Positions 1 through 10,467 of a stretch of DNA of 12,127 nt are shown in pieces. Position 1 is the first letter of the stretch; each line of letters opens with the position of its first letter. The notes under the pieces are model-generated. The model had not been told where the DNA came from. It did not search any database and saw nothing but the letters and a program-made list of their open reading frames with translations. Both the position numbers and the translations under genes were made by a program. Source of the stretch: a virus (lineage: Duplodnaviria > Heunggongvirae > Uroviricota > Caudoviricetes); the IMG/VR virus record IMGVR_UViG_2645727673_000001; one strand, written 5' to 3'.

Positions 1-177
1 GGTATTCCCCTCACTGTCCAGCACCGGTGTACTGTTCAGCAGCACGCTTTTTAATCCATCCACCGGACCTTCAATCGGCCCTTCGCTGATGGCATCGATC
101 ACACTCAGCAACTGCGTGGATTTCAGGTTATCCTTCGCTTCGCGCGGGGTATGCCCCTTACTGCTGCCTTTACCCAT
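1..177 (-). CDS. J: Central tail fiber / tail tip protein J, N-terminal 59 codons only (gene continues beyond the left edge of the window)
   Basis: Reverse-complement translation from the ATG at 175-177 gives MGKGSSKGHTPREAKDNLKSTQLLSVIDAISEGPIEGPVDGLKSVLLNSTPVLDSEGNT, which I recognise as the lambda gpJ N-terminus. GGAG lies 8 nt upstream of the ATG. It follows gene I as in lambda. It is absent from the ORF track because it is truncated by the window edge. Confidence 0.9.
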   Translation of the reverse strand, partial: MGKGSSKGHTPREAKDNLKSTQLLSVIDAISEGPIEGPVDGLKSVLLNSTPVLDSEGNT

Positions 178-237: not shown

Positions 238-885
238 TCAGCGACCAATCACCACAACCTGACCACCGTCCCCTTCGTCTGCCGTGCTGATCTCCTGAGA
301 AACCACCCGCGACCCCACACGCATTTCACCGTACAGAACAGGCAAAACATTGCCCTGAGCAACCATGTTATCCAGTGAGGAGAAATAGGTGTTCTGTTTG
401 CCGTTATCTGTACTGGCTGCCGTGGGCGTCCTGGCTTTCGGTGCCAGCATCTGGGCCACACCACCCAGGATCATACTGGCCCCTGCCGCATACATGCCCG
501 ATACAGCCGCAGCACCCAGCCAGCCCACAGGGTTCCACCATGCCACCGCAATCAGCGCCGCCCCCAGCACCACCTGAAACACACCGCCACTTTTAGCTCC
601 CGCCATACGCGGCACGATGTGAATCACGGCACCATTTTCCAGCGGCTCATTAAGACGGGCAGATAATTCATTTTCTCCCGCATCACGCCCGGCAATGCGC
701 ACCTGATACCAGCCCTCATTCAGTTTCTGGCGAAACGACGGAAGCTGTGTGGCCAGCGCCCGGATGGCTTCAGCCCCCGTTTTCACACGAAGGTCGATGC
801 GGCGGCCAAATCGTTGTAAATCCCCGTAAAGGCAGATGCGTGCCATGCCCGGTGACGCCAGAGGGAGTGTGTGCGTCGCTGCCAT
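238..885 (-). CDS. I: Tail assembly protein I
   Basis: 215-aa ORF with ATG start. N-terminus MAATHTLPLASPGMARICLYGDLQRFGRRIDLRVKTGAEAIRALATQL and C-terminus NGKQNTYFSSLDNMVAQGNVLPVLYGEMRVGSRVVSQEISTADEGDGGQVVVIGR match lambda gpI as I recall it. Gly/Ala-rich hydrophobic middle segment. Lies between K and J. Confidence 0.93.
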   Translation of the reverse strand: MAATHTLPLASPGMARICLYGDLQRFGRRIDLRVKTGAEAIRALATQLPSFRQKLNEGWYQVRIAGRDAGENELSARLNEPLENGAVIHIVPRMAGAKSGGVFQVVLGAALIAVAWWNPVGWLGAAAVSGMYAAGASMILGGVAQMLAPKARTPTAASTDNGKQNTYFSSLDNMVAQGNVLPVLYGEMRVGSRVVSQEISTADEGDGGQVVVIGR

Positions 886-1526
886 TTGTCGGTATACCTC
901 TCTCGTTTGCTCAGTTGTTCAGGAATATGGTGCAGCAGCTCGCCATCACCACAGTAAATGGCGGCATGATTCGGCACCGATGAACCAAAACAGCACAGCA
1001 GCACATCGCCCGGCTGCGCCTCTGTCAGTGCGACACGGTAAAAACCAGTCGCCTCCATATTGTCAAGATAGAGATTCTGGCCGTTACGCCACCAGTCATC
1101 TCCGCGATGAAAATCCGGCATCTCAATTCCCGCCAGATGGTATGCATCCCGGAACAGCGTGTAACAGTCCGTCACCCCGTGCTCAAAGCGCCGCCCGGTA
1201 AGATGTGGCACACAGCGGAACTTGTGAATCGCCCCGCGGCAGACCAGCCACCACGGCAAATCACTCTGCACCTGCAGCCGCCGATCGGCCTCACTCAGCC
1301 AGGGCAGACCACCGGGATGACTGTGGACCAGCGCCACAATCTCACCCTGCATTTCTGCCCGCAGCCAGTCCTCCGGAGCCATCCGGAAATACGCCTCCGG
1401 CTCACCGGAGATATTCACGCAGGGAAAATATCTTTCTCCCTCCGGCATTCTCACCACGAAGCCGCACGACTCCGCTGGCGCACATCGCCGGGCGTGCGCC
1501 AGAATCGCTGATTCTGTCTCTGTCAT
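783..1526 (-). CDS. K: Tail assembly protein K (MPN/JAMM domain plus NlpC/P60 domain)
   Basis: 247-aa ORF with ATG start 5 nt after the L stop codon. JAMM motif HSHPGGLPWLSEAD (HxHx7Sx2D) is present, and a downstream Cys in GVTDCYTLF fits an NlpC/P60 catalytic cysteine. Highly similar to lambda gpK. Its 3' end overlaps the start of I by about 100 nt. Confidence 0.93.
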   Translation of the reverse strand: MTETESAILAHARRCAPAESCGFVVRMPEGERYFPCVNISGEPEAYFRMAPEDWLRAEMQGEIVALVHSHPGGLPWLSEADRRLQVQSDLPWWLVCRGAIHKFRCVPHLTGRRFEHGVTDCYTLFRDAYHLAGIEMPDFHRGDDWWRNGQNLYLDNMEATGFYRVALTEAQPGDVLLCCFGSSVPNHAAIYCGDGELLHHIPEQLSKRERYTDKWQRRTHSLWRHRAWHASAFTGIYNDLAAASTFV

Positions 1527-1531
1527 GGGAT

Positions 1532-2230
1532 TTACTGCGAAAGTTTGTTAATGGAAAGGTAACCGCCAAAGTTGCCGACGTTATTGCGAAACTTACAGCC
1601 GCTAAGGCATTTGCTGCATTTATCCTTCGTGATATCGGACGTCGGCTGGTCATATTCATCCGCGACTGCCGGACCGTGATAACCGCACTCATCACCGCGA
1701 TAGGTCCAGGTGCAGGTGTTGGCCAGCATGATACGCCCCGGAAAAACAGCACCGTCCGTTTCCGTCGGCGTGGACAGTACAAAAGAAGCACTGACCGCAC
1801 TCAGTTCACTGCACTGCTCGATGCGCCAGCTGCTGATCACCTCCTGCTCCTGGTCGGCATCACTGTTTCCGTTGACGAAGTTCACCGCATCCAGAAAACG
1901 GGCGTAAACCTTACGCCGGACCACCGTTCCGCCGACCAGACTCTGCAGATCTTCCGCCATACCGGTGACCATACCGTGCAGGTTAGAAACCGTCAGTGTC
2001 GGACGGGCAGCACTGCCCTTGCCGTTCAGTTCAAATCCTGTCCCCTGAATGGGGTATGCCTGATACTGCCGCCCCTGCCAGGTGACCGGCTCACCTTTTT
2101 CGTTCTGCTCATTACATAAAAAATAACGTTCACCACCGACCTCTGTCAGATCGATTTCCCAGAGCACCACCTGGGCTGACTGAGTGAGGCGTGTCGTCTC
2201 ATGATGTGTTTCCTGTGGAATATCCTGCAT
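1532..2230 (-). CDS. L: Minor tail protein L
   Basis: Translation MQDIPQETHHETTRLTQSAQVVLWEIDLTEVGGERYFLCNEQNEKGEPVTWQGRQYQ ... CSKCLSGCKFRNNVGNFGGYLSINKLSQ matches lambda gpL, including the C-terminal cysteine cluster. Start chosen at the second of two tandem ATGs (2230) because AGGAGG lies 5 nt upstream; the first ATG (2233) is only 2 nt from it. Confidence 0.95.
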   Translation of the reverse strand: MQDIPQETHHETTRLTQSAQVVLWEIDLTEVGGERYFLCNEQNEKGEPVTWQGRQYQAYPIQGTGFELNGKGSAARPTLTVSNLHGMVTGMAEDLQSLVGGTVVRRKVYARFLDAVNFVNGNSDADQEQEVISSWRIEQCSELSAVSASFVLSTPTETDGAVFPGRIMLANTCTWTYRGDECGYHGPAVADEYDQPTSDITKDKCSKCLSGCKFRNNVGNFGGYLSINKLSQ

Positions 2231-2239
2231 CATGGCCTC

Positions 2240-2569
2240 CTATGCCACGACCTGTTCAAAATCTGCCGTTATGGTTACCCACAGCGCCCCCACGCTTGCC
2301 GACCATTTACGACAAACCACCCTAATCGGCTTCCAGTCATAAGGTGGCGTCCACTGAAATGCGCGGACGCCACCGTGCCGTTCCAGAAAGGCTTTTAAAG
2401 ATGGGTGTTCACATTTACGAACACGTATCGTCACGCTGTAAGTCGACAACTGGTTATTCAGTCCCGCCGCACGACGCTGTTCATAACCATCGCCCAGCTT
2501 CACTGTCACCACTTTCGGTTCTGATACCACATTCATATCCGGGCGCACTTTCCAGTGAAACGTCTCCAT
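2240..2569 (-). CDS. M: Minor tail protein M
   Basis: 109-aa ORF METFHWKVRPDMNVVSEPKVVTVKLGDGYEQRRAAGLNNQLSTYSVTIRV ... ADFEQVVA, same length and clear similarity to lambda gpM. Its ATG overlaps the H stop codon (TAATG). Confidence 0.95.
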   Translation of the reverse strand: METFHWKVRPDMNVVSEPKVVTVKLGDGYEQRRAAGLNNQLSTYSVTIRVRKCEHPSLKAFLERHGGVRAFQWTPPYDWKPIRVVCRKWSASVGALWVTITADFEQVVA

Positions 2570-5500
2570 TACCGATATGCTCCACTTAACCGACCACCAT
2601 CACGGGCCTGCTGTTGCATAAAGTCCGCTGCCGCTTTTTTCCCGAGGTCATAAACCACCTTCAGGGCAGCCGGACCTATCTGCCCGTTCGTGCCATCGTT
2701 ATTGATCTCGATGTTGTACTGCGGGGCAAACATCGCCATACCTGAACCACCAATATCCGCCACAACCCCCAGCTTACCGTCAGCACCACGACGCAGTGGC
2801 AGAATGGCTTCAGGTCCAGCTTCCCCCATCACACCTGCACCTTTTGCAAAAGCAAAAAACGTCGGACGGTTAACCACCGTGCCACTGTAGCGACTCAAAT
2901 CAGCAGACTGATAAACACCACCATCAGCATTGGGCGTCACACTGGCAGTTGCTGCACTCCCCCAGCCAAACGCCGAACCAATCCCCTTAACTGCCTGCAT
3001 CATGGACATCTGGGCCATGATTTTTGCCAGATCAGAAAGGAGCGAGGCGGTAAAAGATTTGAAGTTCAGTTTTCCGGTAGTACAGAACGTTGCCAGTGCA
3101 TTACCTGCACTGTTAAATGCCGCTGTAAGCATCTGCTCAGCAGTGCCTGCCGCATTATCCGCATCTGCCGTGAAATTCTGAAACGCCCGCATAGCACCGT
3201 TTTTCCAGTTACCCTGAGCAATTTCAAGCTGTTGCCAGTAACGGCGATTCTCATTCAGTTGTCGGTTCAGGCTCTCCGTCAGCGCCTGCTCGGCCTTTCT
3301 GTAGTCATCCGTGTTATATGTCCCTTTCTGCTCACTATCCCGCCTCAACTGCTCCAGCTGTTGCTGGTATTTCTGGCGAAGACTCAGTTGTACCTGATAT
3401 CGCTGCCGCTGCTGATCACCCATACCCACCGTGGCGATATCCAGGTCATGTTGCTGACGCTGAGCGCGCTCTTCTTCAGCCAGTTGACTGGTCAGCTGAA
3501 TTGTTTTTTTCTTCAGCTCGTTGAGTGCCGTCTGTTTCTGAAGCTCCTGCTGTTTTACATCCAGCAGCGTCAGTGCCTGAATCAGTTCATCTTTACGGGC
3601 CAGCACACTCTTTTCATCTGCCGTCAGTTTTTTCCCGTCCAGGTCGCTGATGCGCTGCTGCAGAGCCAGAAGCTGTTTATGCGCTTCTGTCATCTTTTCA
3701 GTGGCAATGCCTGCTGACTGTCTTGCAGCAGCAATCTGCCCTTCCACCTGTGCCTGTTGCTGACTGTACTGCAGCAATAACCGGGTGGCCTCATCATTAC
3801 GGGTTTCGCGTGTTTTTTTCTTACCGGATGCCAGGGCTTTCTCGTAACGTTCATTTTCACGTTGTATCGCCGCATCCCTGACAGCCTGGTCGGCGTACTG
3901 CATGGCATTAATACGCGCAATTTCACGCTGATGTCGTGCTGCTTCCGTTTCATTCATCCGGTTCAGTGCAGCATTTTCAGCATTACGTCGTTTCTGTTGC
4001 TCCTGATAATTCCGCTCTGCCTGCTCTTTTGCATCCTGCAAATCCTTCTGGCGTTTTTTCTCCTGAAGATCGTTAAGACGCTGCTGATCGTATTCAACCT
4101 GAGAAGATGATGCCGTCCAGGGGAGTCTTTTCGCCCGCGACACTTTCTCCTGTAAAGCGGCAATCTGTTCATCCAGCGAGTCTTCACGACCAATATTCAT
4201 GGCCGCATCCCAGAAACGACTCCACAAATCAGACAGATACTTCAGCGTACTGCCAAGCGCATTGAGGTTATTATCAATATCCGCAGTACGCCGACCGGTT
4301 TCCTCTGCCAGTGCAGACATGGCTATCCGTGCAGCATCACTGGACCGTCCCTGATCCCCAAGGACACGTATCTGCTCAAGCTGAGTGGCAGTAAGAAAAT
4401 GCAGCTCATTGTCCAGAGCCTTCGCGGCATTTACAGGATCATCCTTCAGCCGCTTAAACTGATTTATGGTATCGCTGACCGACTGGCCAACCGATCGCTC
4501 CATCTGTGCGGCAGCTCTCGCCACCATACCGATATCGTTTCCACGAAATGCACCACTCCCCACCACCTGCGCCAGCGCACCGGCTGCAGCATGTTGCGTG
4601 ATACCATTCCCGGAAATAGCACGACTAAGCGTCCACAGCTGCCCGGCAGTGACTCCGGCATAATGCCCCGTCAGCGACAACTGGCGGTTAAATTCTTCCC
4701 CCTCCTTCTGACCGTCATACCAGGCTTTACCCAGACCATAGACGGCCGCGGCAATACCGCCAATAACCCCGCCCAGCATCATGCCTTTCGGTGACATCAG
4801 TGTGTCTATCCATCCGGCACGGTTAGCCAGCGTTATCCCGGATCCCCTCAGCGCACCTAAATTGCCGCGAGCCAGTTCACCTATCAGAACGCCTATCTCC
4901 TGGCGGGCCGCTGCACTTTTCAGACCCAGCGAATGCGTGGCTTTTCCTGCCTGCTCCATTTTGCGGATATACACTTCTGCAGCACTGCTTACCCCCAGTT
5001 GGGCAGCCTTAGCACGAAGCAACTCAGAAGAAGAAAGATTCTGGCGGGTTGCCTGCTCTTTAAGCTGACGGATAAACGCCACTTTCTGTCGGGTAGCCTC
5101 TTCCTCAGCCTGTGTAAGAACACGGGTTTTCGCCGTAACCTCAGAAATCAGCGCCAGATAATCCTGCTGACCAATCCCGCCACTGTGTCTGGCCTGTCGG
5201 ATCTGCTGCTGAATACGCTGTAATTCCTGCAGCCCCGCACTGGCCTGTTTCACACTGTCAATCTGACGATAAAACGCAGCAGCCGCTTTATCCTGAGCCT
5301 CCGCCAGAGCCATGGCCTGCGCCTGTTCATCGCGCATTTTCTGGCTCAGCGCCTCCATGCGCTGGCGGGTTTTCTCCACCTCGCGAGCCATGCGTTCATG
5401 AGCCTGTGCGTTCTTCTCCACCGTCTGCGCATGGACGGAGGCGGCTGTTGCAGCCGAAGAAGCCGCCTGCGTTGTCTGCCGGGCGGCCTGAGTCTGACGC

Positions 5501-5643
5501 TCCATAAAACGCTGCATACGGGCAGAAGACCGTTCTGCATCGCTGGCGGCACCATTCAGAAGGTTTTTGATACGGGGAATTTCATTTTTAAACTCTGCCG
5601 CATCAATCCCCAAATCAATGACCAGGTTGGCTATCTGGTCCAT
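2569..5643 (-). CDS. H: Tail tape measure protein H
   Basis: Long ORF with a Q/A/E/R/K-rich central coiled-coil-like region. N-terminus MDQIANLVIDLGIDAAEF and C-terminus NNDGTNGQIGPAALKVVYDLGKKAAADFMQQQARDGGRLSGAYR align with the lambda gpH termini. Start set at the ATG at 5641-5643 (GGAGGT 7 nt upstream); the track start at 5673 is a TTG extension. About 1024 aa. Confidence 0.95.
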   Translation of the reverse strand: MDQIANLVIDLGIDAAEFKNEIPRIKNLLNGAASDAERSSARMQRFMERQTQAARQTTQAASSAATAASVHAQTVEKNAQAHERMAREVEKTRQRMEALSQKMRDEQAQAMALAEAQDKAAAAFYRQIDSVKQASAGLQELQRIQQQIRQARHSGGIGQQDYLALISEVTAKTRVLTQAEEEATRQKVAFIRQLKEQATRQNLSSSELLRAKAAQLGVSSAAEVYIRKMEQAGKATHSLGLKSAAARQEIGVLIGELARGNLGALRGSGITLANRAGWIDTLMSPKGMMLGGVIGGIAAAVYGLGKAWYDGQKEGEEFNRQLSLTGHYAGVTAGQLWTLSRAISGNGITQHAAAGALAQVVGSGAFRGNDIGMVARAAAQMERSVGQSVSDTINQFKRLKDDPVNAAKALDNELHFLTATQLEQIRVLGDQGRSSDAARIAMSALAEETGRRTADIDNNLNALGSTLKYLSDLWSRFWDAAMNIGREDSLDEQIAALQEKVSRAKRLPWTASSSQVEYDQQRLNDLQEKKRQKDLQDAKEQAERNYQEQQKRRNAENAALNRMNETEAARHQREIARINAMQYADQAVRDAAIQRENERYEKALASGKKKTRETRNDEATRLLLQYSQQQAQVEGQIAAARQSAGIATEKMTEAHKQLLALQQRISDLDGKKLTADEKSVLARKDELIQALTLLDVKQQELQKQTALNELKKKTIQLTSQLAEEERAQRQQHDLDIATVGMGDQQRQRYQVQLSLRQKYQQQLEQLRRDSEQKGTYNTDDYRKAEQALTESLNRQLNENRRYWQQLEIAQGNWKNGAMRAFQNFTADADNAAGTAEQMLTAAFNSAGNALATFCTTGKLNFKSFTASLLSDLAKIMAQMSMMQAVKGIGSAFGWGSAATASVTPNADGGVYQSADLSRYSGTVVNRPTFFAFAKGAGVMGEAGPEAILPLRRGADGKLGVVADIGGSGMAMFAPQYNIEINNDGTNGQIGPAALKVVYDLGKKAAADFMQQQARDGGRLSGAYR

Positions 5644-5965
5644 AACGCACACCTCCGGAAATACCTTCTCCAAGATGCATCAGTTCTTCGTCCGTTCGCT
5701 CCGGTATCCCGTTCTCTTCCGGTAAAAGGCTGAAATCAGCCACCGCAGCATCACTGCTGCCGGACACCATTCTCACGATCAATGCCTTCAGCGAGGCAAA
5801 CTGCGCATCCATCCACACATCACTGAAGCTCTGCATCCGGAAATAATCGCCCCACTCACCAAGCTCAGTGGCCGACATTTCCGACAGCATCCGCCGCCAG
5901 TCTGCCCGCCGGAACTCCCGGGCAAGCCGCATGACAAACTGCATTTCCCGCGTCAGGACTTTTCC
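5615..5965 (-). CDS. T: T segment of the tail assembly chaperone G-T, expressed as a -1 frameshift extension of G
   Basis: The ORF at 5615-5944 lies in the -1 frame relative to G and overlaps the G 3' end. That frame is open upstream through the heptamer GGAAAAG (minus strand, about 5959-5965), one base different from the lambda slip site GGGAAAG as I recall it. Position between G and H matches lambda. The 5' boundary is approximate (slip site). Confidence 0.75.
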   Translation of the reverse strand, partial: GKVLTREMQFVMRLAREFRRADWRRMLSEMSATELGEWGDYFRMQSFSDVWMDAQFASLKALIVRMVSGSSDAAVADFSLLPEENGIPERTDEELMHLGEGISGGVRYGPDSQPGH

Positions 5966-6342
5966 GGCGTCAGCGCCTCATGCTCATCATCCCCGGCATT
6001 ATCAATGGCCCCCATACCGCTCAGCGACAGAACCATCTCCGCCCCCGCACCCAGGGCATCATACGACCATGTTGTAATAACGGATGCGCAAAGCGTCTCT
6101 ACATCCTTAGACTGATCCGCATTCCACAGTGAGCGGGAAACCAGCCAGGCATTGATATCCATCCCCATCCGCAGAAAAGCAATCTGTCGTTCAGCCTCCG
6201 GCAGTTCTCCCTCCCCGGCATCAAACTTTGCCGTTCGCTGCTGAACAAACGCCAGATATTCAATTCTCTGCAGCCCGGACAGCTCACTGAGCACCACGGA
6301 CTGTTTTTCATAATTAAACGTGCCCTGTTTCAGAAACATCAT
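5953..6342 (-). CDS. G: Tail assembly chaperone G
   Basis: ORF ending EHEALTPEKS-stop, located between V and T/H as in lambda. Start set at the tandem ATG ATG (6337-6342) with GGTGGAG just upstream; the track start at 6381 is a TTG that runs through the upstream hairpin. Confidence 0.85.
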   Translation of the reverse strand: MMFLKQGTFNYEKQSVVLSELSGLQRIEYLAFVQQRTAKFDAGEGELPEAERQIAFLRMGMDINAWLVSRSLWNADQSKDVETLCASVITTWSYDALGAGAEMVLSLSGMGAIDNAGDDEHEALTPEKS

Positions 6343-6391: not shown

Positions 6392-6760
6392 TCATCCTGT
6401 TAACCTGCGGCGCTGACAGCCACCGTATTTGATACGAAACGCGCAGACTTCACCGGAGTCGAACAACTGAACCAGTTTTTTCTGCCCGCTGTCACCCGGA
6501 CGCCAGGCCAGCGTCGCCGAAGTATCACCGACGGATTTCTGCCCCTGGGTTGTCGTTTTCCAGTCTGCATCTTCATCATCGAGATAAGTGTCATCTTCTG
6601 CATCAGCGGTCATTTCGCCAGGTTGCAGATCCTTCACCATCGCAAGACGCAGCCAGTCAGTGTCCGATAAAGGGTTCGCAAACGCATCGCCCTTGCCGGT
6701 GTACATCCAGAACGTCGTTCCCGCACCTTTCGTTTTTGCCAGTGGATTTGGTGTGGTCAT
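6392..6760 (-). CDS. V: Major tail tube protein V homologue, short form (122 aa): N-terminal domain only, possibly truncated
   Basis: [86 protein letters not shown] aligns with the first ~110 residues of lambda gpV. After FRIKY the sequence diverges ([10 protein letters not shown]) and stops. AAGGAGGT ribosome-binding site 4-5 nt upstream of the ATG at 6758-6760. Confidence 0.8.
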
Positions 6761-8436: not shown

Positions 8437-10467
8437 TTACGCCGTACATTTCACCAGACCGCGGTGATCAACTGGCGCGACACCGGCGTCAATACGCACT
8501 TTCGTTGTCACGCCATCCACACTGAAGCCCTCCATCTGATCAATATATGGCGTATCCACACCGTTGAGATAAGCCACTTCAATAGTATCGGAGCCTTTTG
8601 ACGCAGCCAGGTAGAAGGTGGTCTGGCTGTTATCATCAAGACGAGGCTCTGCAATAACGGTCGCAAAATCTTTCACCGGGTTAATAATACCGGCGTTAAT
8701 GTCAGCCCCCTTGACACTTGAGGAGCGAATGACCTGGTTAGCAACAGACTCCATCGCCGTCGGTACCAGTACGAACGCAGGACGAATATTCAGATGACGC
8801 TCCCCCTCTTTCTGAACGCGCATCAACTGGCGGGCTTTATCCAGCGATGCCACGTCCATTGCAGCGCTCTCCAGTACGTTTGCATGTTTTGCTTTATCGA
8901 ACAGACTTACATTATCTGTGGAGATTTTCGGGTTAGACGTCAGAATGGCATAAACCAGATCGGCAATAGTGGATTTCGCCGCACGGCCCAGTTTCATCGG
9001 GACATCGGTCAGCATATTCAGATCATCATTGATAATGGCCTGACGGGTGATACTGAACAGCTCGCCATAGGTCGCCAGTGCAATAGTGGCCTGTTTATCT
9101 CCGGTGGTGACGTATTTATATTCCGCCCCTTCACGCACCTGACGCAGAGCACTGAAGCCCCCCATACCCACACGATGGGCAATTTTAAAATCAGACAACT
9201 GACCTTTCCGCGTCCACTGTTCATAGGTTTCAGGGGCATCTTCCCAGCCCTGCAGAATGGCTTTGTTCGCAACATCCAGCAGAATATTACCGAAGTCAGA
9301 CGTACTGTGTGTGAACGCCGCACCGACCATCTGCATCGGGTTATAACTGGAAACCCCAATACCCCGTTCAGTCAGTGACATACGGGCATATTCACGCAGG
9401 GTCATCCCGTTGTAGACATTATCACGTTCGGTTTTTTCAAATCCGGCACGCGCCATCAGCGCCTGGCGGATCCCGTCCCCCACAAAATTACCGTTACCGG
9501 CATAAATATGAGCCGGGGTATTTTTATTGGATGGCGTGGACTCGCGCCCCATCTCGTTCAACAGCTTTTCGCGGGCCTGCTCCAGCGAACATTCAGGATC
9601 GGCAAGACACTGAGCCTGCAGCGTCTGATAACGCCCGCCAAACATGGCAAACAGATCATTAATACCGTTTACACGCGCTTTTTGCTCTGCCAGTACCTGC
9701 GCACGGATACTGTTTTCATCCACCACGGGTGCTGCTGCCTGCACTGGCGTCCGGGAGGCTGCAGGTTCATCATCCTGTACGCGTGGAGCACTGTTGCGTG
9801 GCGGAGTAATCATGTTTCGAATGGATTCCGGCATCTTTTTAAATTCCTCTGTACGTTTTGACTGAATACATGCCATTGCCTTAACGGCTGGCGTCACCTG
9901 ATCAGCAAATCCCTGTGCCAGACATTCGGCACCGGACATCCAGGTCTCATCCGCCAGCATGGCAGCAATTTCATCGGTGGTTTTCCCGGTTTTCTGTGCA
10001 TAAGCGGGTAACAGAACCGCCGCCTCAACTTTATCGAGCAGGTCGGCATAGGTGCGCATGTCCTCCGCATCACCGCCCGTAAAGCCAAATGGTTTATGAA
10101 TCATCATGAAGGAGTTTTCCGGCATAATGACCGGGTTTCCCACCATCGCAATGACCGACGCCATTGACGCCGCCACACCGTCGACATAAACGGTAATGGA
10201 CGCACCATGTGTTTTCAGTGCATTAAAAATGGCGATGCCTTCAAAGACATCGCCACCCGGTGAATTAATATGGAGATTAATGTGGGTGATATCGCCCAGT
10301 GCATTCAGATCACTGATAAACTGCTTCGCCGTAACACCCCAGAAACCAATCTCGTCATAAATATAAATATCCGCGTCACTCTGGTGACCTGCCTGCATCC
10401 TGAACCAGGAATTATTCTTCGGACTGGTCGTCGGTGTACTGCGGCTACTGTCGTTTCGTTGCGGCAC
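8437..10467 (-). CDS. Prohead protease (ClpP/S14-type) fused in one ORF to the major capsid protein
   Basis: The N-terminal region carries ClpP signature motifs INSPGG, GVAASMAS (catalytic Ser) and MMIHKPFG (catalytic His), close to E. coli ClpP INSPGG / QAASMGA / MIHQPLGG. A linker follows, then about 400 aa that I interpret as an HK97-fold major capsid domain from position and size. Start proposed at the GTG at 10465-10467, with AAAGGAGG 5 nt upstream, overlapping the portal 3' end by 23 nt. Alternatives are the ATG at 10398 (weak ribosome-binding site, would remove the conserved SWF segment) and the TTG at 10659. Confidence 0.85.
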   Translation of the reverse strand: MPQRNDSSRSTPTTSPKNNSWFRMQAGHQSDADIYIYDEIGFWGVTAKQFISDLNALGDITHINLHINSPGGDVFEGIAIFNALKTHGASITVYVDGVAASMASVIAMVGNPVIMPENSFMMIHKPFGFTGGDAEDMRTYADLLDKVEAAVLLPAYAQKTGKTTDEIAAMLADETWMSGAECLAQGFADQVTPAVKAMACIQSKRTEEFKKMPESIRNMITPPRNSAPRVQDDEPAASRTPVQAAAPVVDENSIRAQVLAEQKARVNGINDLFAMFGGRYQTLQAQCLADPECSLEQAREKLLNEMGRESTPSNKNTPAHIYAGNGNFVGDGIRQALMARAGFEKTERDNVYNGMTLREYARMSLTERGIGVSSYNPMQMVGAAFTHSTSDFGNILLDVANKAILQGWEDAPETYEQWTRKGQLSDFKIAHRVGMGGFSALRQVREGAEYKYVTTGDKQATIALATYGELFSITRQAIINDDLNMLTDVPMKLGRAAKSTIADLVYAILTSNPKISTDNVSLFDKAKHANVLESAAMDVASLDKARQLMRVQKEGERHLNIRPAFVLVPTAMESVANQVIRSSSVKGADINAGIINPVKDFATVIAEPRLDDNSQTTFYLAASKGSDTIEVAYLNGVDTPYIDQMEGFSVDGVTTKVRIDAGVAPVDHRGLVKCTA

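Follow-up and report, generated by a model that had tools for sequence, protein, structure and literature searches.

The segment at positions 1532..2230 on the minus strand of the DNA analysed here (the window, 12,127 nucleotides) is an ordinary, intact lambda-type gene L in an Escherichia coli prophage. Very probably, its product represents the gpL/BHP1 hub protein of a lambda-like prophage, carrying a [4Fe-4S] cluster on the cysteines C173, C182, C205 and C212. The annotation of L should accordingly read iron-sulfur protein, with these four residues named as ligands. The iron-sulfur cysteines of gpL are already known biology and the exact sequence of L is already deposited in RefSeq.

The identity of L as tail-tip protein, or baseplate hub protein 1, of 232 amino acids is established by several comparisons. 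A search of all PDB chains aligned L without any gap over residues 1–232 to the lambda protein (8iyk_L, E 6e-145), with 212 of 232 residues identical (91%), and the same 212/232 identity was confirmed on the lambda reference DNA. The chains termed "Tail tip protein L" of lambda that were matched by L belong to the entries 8IYK, 8IYL, 8K35, 8XCG and 9E7M. The Pfam family Phage_tail_L (PF05100) is matched with 319.9 bits, the cut-off being 25, over all profile positions (1–206 of 206). Furthermore, the product is identical to WP_046660124.1 from the prophage of E. coli WAT, to which RefSeq gives the name "phage minor tail protein L", and the gene shares 96–99% identity with its counterparts in several lambdoid coliphages, among them PhiR40_1, cdtI and mEp460. 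Judged by those marks of the gpL family that a sequence can carry, namely the profile match, the ligand cysteines, the full-length architecture and the gene context, L is a member of this family.

The open reading frame on the minus strand spans 1532-2233 and comprises 233 codons with the N-terminus MMQDI, offering two candidate ATG codons at 2233 and 2230; its stop codon lies at 1532-1534. The second ATG (2230) yields 232 amino acids, as in lambda gpL, and corresponds to the RefSeq start of the identical gene of E. coli WAT. Therefore, the interval 1532-2230 given by the first-pass annotation is the exact coding sequence of L including the stop codon. Upstream, a strong Shine-Dalgarno sequence AGGAGG, read directly from the DNA, is located at 2236..2241 (minus strand) and overlaps the stop codon TAG of gene M (2240-2242). 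It is separated by 5 nucleotides from the ATG at 2230 and by 2 nucleotides from the alternative ATG at 2233. Two open reading frames on the plus strand, 1205-2119 and 1710-1907, were rejected as genes, since they run antisense to the conserved and annotated L.

L contains seven cysteines, which in lambda numbering are residues 39, 140, 173, 182, 205, 208 and 212. The last five are held by the motifs CTWTYRGDEC and CSKCLSGC, and five of seven within one stretch of 40 residues corresponds to a binomial P of 0.002 if this stretch had been chosen beforehand. The first-pass annotation had quoted CTWTYRGDECGY (residues 173-184) and CSKCLSGC (residues 205-212) and had claimed that L retains the C-terminal cysteine motifs of lambda gpL. 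Both motifs are indeed present, and all five cysteines align with cysteines of lambda gpL. An alignment with lambda gpL had also been proposed there as a check, and in this alignment the four reported ligand cysteines occupy identical positions, with no misalignment seen.

The conservation of these positions is a stronger argument than the probability of their clustering. For its assessment, 263 relatives from the database were placed in a query-anchored HMMER alignment, in which residues 170-213 are covered by 215 rows. It took the place of a MAFFT alignment of the 120 nearest database proteins, in which fused, partial and frameshifted entries had caused distortion (1,469 columns). The word-indexed homologue search delivered only relatives of at least about 66% identity, while the representative search reached 34–50% identity. 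Within the distant set, consisting of 71 relatives with 34–60% identity to L, the positions 173, 182, 205 and 212 are cysteine in 71 of 71 proteins. The rare other residues found at the four ligand positions stem mostly from singleton, fused or partial entries. On the contrary, position 208 is a cysteine in only 4 of the 71 relatives below 60% identity, being arginine in 38, threonine in 13 and serine in 8, whereas nearly all relatives of at least 60% identity, the enterobacterial lambda-like L proteins, have a cysteine here. Due to this difference (71/71 versus 4/71), C173, C182, C205 and C212 are taken as the ligand set and C208 as a clade-specific extra that does not belong to it.

On the minus strand of the window, the inferred cluster ligands are encoded by the codons TGC at 1712..1714 (Cys173), TGC at 1685..1687 (Cys182), TGC at 1616..1618 (Cys205) and TGT at 1595..1597 (Cys212). 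The codon of the lineage-specific fifth cysteine, Cys208, is TGC at 1607..1609. In lambda gpL, the replacement of any of the four ligand cysteines reportedly abolished activity. There is a slim chance that Cys208 could serve as an alternative or transient ligand during cluster insertion, repair or oxidative loss of iron. If this were true, members of the lambda clade would deal with their cluster in another way than the other proteins of the family.

For the lambda tail tip, cryo-EM revealed a density amid Cys173, Cys182, Cys205 and Cys212 that was modeled as an iron-sulfur cluster, with Cys208 not listed among the surrounding residues (PMC10721106). The first-pass annotation had regarded all C-terminal cysteines of the two motifs as ligands. 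This holds for C173, C182, C205 and C212, but C208 lies outside the reported ligands and is poorly conserved. The lambda structure paper (PMC10721106) refers to biochemical work in which an oxygen-sensitive [4Fe-4S]2+ cluster was demonstrated in the gpL homologues of lambda and N15, and another article attributes to Tam et al. [quoted passage not shown] The 4Fe-4S domain of lambda was found on the outside of the tip, in contrast to an earlier proposal of a buried position (PMC10721106). A cluster held by four cysteines was furthermore seen by cryo-EM in the homologous domain of RcGTA, roseophage R4C and T1. The iron-sulfur reading put forward by the first-pass annotation is thus supported by homology, with all four ligand cysteines kept in a protein of 91% identity to lambda gpL, and that the tail tip of this prophage carries a [4Fe-4S] cluster is well supported on the same grounds.

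The two-domain plan of the lambda protein seems to be retained in L, since it is matched over the full-length alignment to 8iyk_L. Here, the N-terminal hub domain I (HDI) with its tail-tube-like fold would comprise residues 1-153 (1772..2230, minus strand), a boundary transferred from lambda (PMC10721106) via the gapless alignment. The C-terminal domain of lambda gpL has been defined as residues 154-232 (PMC10721106), and this boundary was likewise transferred, placing an iron-sulfur-binding domain of about 80 residues at 1535..1771 (minus strand). The 20 substitutions between L and lambda gpL are distributed unevenly, 18 being located in residues 1-153 and 2 in the C-terminal domain (S185H and F224Y), while residues 135-184 and 186-223 are unchanged. 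On DNA level, L and lambda L are 90% identical with an overall dN/dS of 0.17, and for the C-terminal domain a value of 0.075 was obtained from 3 non-synonymous and 10 synonymous changes. L is under purifying selection relative to lambda L.

Transferred to the present protein, the lambda structures suggest how L may work in the tail tip. Three L and three J chains would form a pseudo-hexameric cone under the hexameric ring of gpM, to which L would contribute HDI (residues 1-153) as well as the 4Fe-4S domain (residues 154-232), the latter lying on the outer face of the tip. One [4Fe-4S] cluster, coordinated by Cys173, Cys182, Cys205 and Cys212 and presumably inserted in the cytoplasm by the Fe-S assembly machinery of the host, would hold the small C-terminal domain together. 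By rigidifying a domain that is poor in regular secondary structure, the cluster would allow L to assemble with J. Once the tip opens upon binding to LamB, the 4Fe-4S domain is expected to swing outward unchanged, together with HDII, HDIII and HDII-ins1 of J. A structural role of the cluster, as a brace of the small domain, is the most economical reading and the most likely one. Because L differs so little from its already studied lambda counterpart, this copy does not help to explain what the cluster is for.

Three other readings of the cysteines have to be weighed against a structural iron-sulfur cluster. The four cysteines could bind a single zinc ion in the manner of a Cys4 zinc knuckle, since Cys4 sites of similar spacing often bind zinc and the metals are indistinguishable from sequence alone. 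Nevertheless, no result of the present analysis speaks for zinc, the density in the maps of lambda, RcGTA, R4C and T1 comprises several atoms and was modeled as an iron-sulfur cluster, the biochemical study cited for all four structures is described there as reporting an oxygen-sensitive [4Fe-4S]2+ cluster, and L shares 91% identity with lambda gpL, which leaves zinc as a highly improbable ligand. Disulfide bonding was rejected as the role of these cysteines, given the cluster density in four independent structures and the fact that phage tails assemble in the reducing cytoplasm. A more far-reaching idea is that the cluster acts as a redox or oxygen sensor, gating assembly or opening of the tail tip beyond a purely structural brace. 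This would fit to the oxygen sensitivity ascribed to the cluster in the citing literature and to the movement of the domain during tip opening (PMC11101478), and the authors of the lambda structure call the function of the cluster still to be characterized (PMC10721106). However, in the LamB-triggered opening the 4Fe-4S domain keeps its shape and moves as a rigid body (PMC11101478), virions are stable in air and the tail-tip literature examined reports no redox-dependent phenotype. A sensor function is therefore unlikely, and the structural brace remains the preferred reading.

A different question is whether L is still in use, and here the state of the prophage becomes relevant. The gene of the major tail protein, V (6392-6760, minus strand), carries a frameshifting deletion of 383 bp relative to the WAT prophage, with the junction at 6426/6427 and a 2-bp TA microhomology. 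The truncated V consists of 112 native and 10 out-of-frame residues of a protein of 247 amino acids. When 5,426 complete E. coli genomes were searched with a 40-nt probe of the deletion junction, none of them matched. With a 120-nt probe across the deletion, genomes with and without it are indistinguishable, as BLAST joins both flanks. Probably, this leaves the prophage with a defective tail, unless the deletion arose as an artefact of assembly. A real deletion would leave the prophage without a tail tube, and L would be intact but perhaps outside of any virion. With V truncated by a frameshift, L may have lost its place in the virion, and it is doubtful that an L-containing tail tip from this locus reaches one.

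From this it could be argued that L is an inert relic of a defective prophage, in which the cysteines persist for no other reason than that there has not yet been enough time for decay. The loss of all but 112 native residues of V points in this direction, and the absence of the junction from the genomes searched suggests that the lesion is recent. On the other hand, L itself is intact and does not differ from its copy in the WAT prophage, where V is intact as well. Such a relic status is possible but has a less than even chance. It concerns the present-day use of L and neither its identity nor its binding of a cluster, so that it is compatible with the explanation preferred here, an intact lambda-type L with four cluster ligands.

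The surroundings of L correspond to this identity. The window is 99.9% identical to prophages of the E. coli strains WAT and MB06171, and the genes follow the canonical lambda order M-L-K-I-J, as judged by Pfam matches and the RefSeq annotation of the WAT prophage. All are located on the minus strand. Gene M (2240..2569) encodes the distal tail protein, whose ring sits on the L/J hub, and was identified by PF05939 (E 1e-39) and by its RefSeq annotation. Gene K (783..1526) encodes a tail assembly protein of 247 amino acids with JAB/MPN and NlpC/P60 domains (PF14464 and PF00877; C40 family peptidase in RefSeq), followed by gene I (238..885) for the lumen or plug protein of the tail tip (PF06805, E 5.5e-24). 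At 1..177, the 5′ end of gene J is found, which encodes the central fiber or hub protein 2, the partner of L in the trimeric cone (RefSeq "phage attachment tail tip protein J"; locus position 3177 equals window position 177), and runs off the end of the window.

Some features of the neighboring genes are worth recording in their own right. K comprises 247 amino acids here, with a full JAB/MPN domain in addition to NlpC/P60, and lambda K is annotated with 199 amino acids. In the corresponding lambda DNA (NC_001416, 14133-14875), a gap of 1 nt is present at nucleotide 135 of the K gene described here (GGAGGC-TATTTCC). Owing to this missing base, the first 45 codons of lambda K are not in frame, which accounts for its annotated length of only 199 amino acids. 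The genes G (5953-6339) and T (5615-5944), both on the minus strand, are arranged as in lambda. At their junction (5940-5975, minus strand) the GGGAAAG heptamer of the lambda type is absent; a −1 slip at GAA-AAG just before the stop codon of G would read in frame into T (…VLTREMQFVM…). According to the RefSeq annotation, the head module at approximately 8437-10464 (minus strand) contains a major capsid protein to which a ClpP-like prohead protease is fused. The lambda head, in contrast, is encoded by the separate genes C, Nu3, D and E. Due to this protease-capsid fusion, the prophage is regarded as a mosaic of a lambda-type tail and a non-lambda head.

Compared with hub proteins of other systems, L shows a graded similarity. 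The hub proteins of RcGTA (gp13) and roseophage R4C likewise contain an ion-binding domain with an iron-sulfur cluster and four conserved cysteines, as in the family of L. Unlike L, they possess a clip domain, and their ion-binding domain is interrupted by an inserted oligosaccharide-binding domain. Closer in sequence are three divergent hub proteins of solved structure (25vf_7, 23gd_C and 9l9p_J), which L matches with E values from 7e-39 to 3e-12 and in which the four ligand cysteines are aligned with those of L. Their architecture is described as HDI followed by the 4Fe-4S domain. In the first of these, the baseplate hub protein 1 of the F2-pyocin (25vf_7), residue 208 is an arginine and C173 is followed by an insertion of 4 residues. 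The other two are the hub protein gp21 (23gd_C) and 9l9p_J, a chain of 260 amino acids, which is the length reported for gp36 of T1.

The closest relative among the well-studied systems is lambda itself. Lambda gpL has the same length (232 amino acids) and the same neighbors M, K, I and J as L. It contains eight cysteines, seven of which are shared with L, including the four ligands and C208, while Cys12 of lambda is a threonine here. A further difference is found at the M-L junction, which in lambda consists of an overlapping TGATG, whereas in the prophage (2228-2242, minus strand) the TAG of M lies inside the AGGAGG and is followed by two consecutive ATG codons. Nothing in L departs from the known lambda protein. 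The finding is correct but ordinary, of little importance beyond the correct annotation, and confirms a tail-tip module of the lambda type in this prophage.
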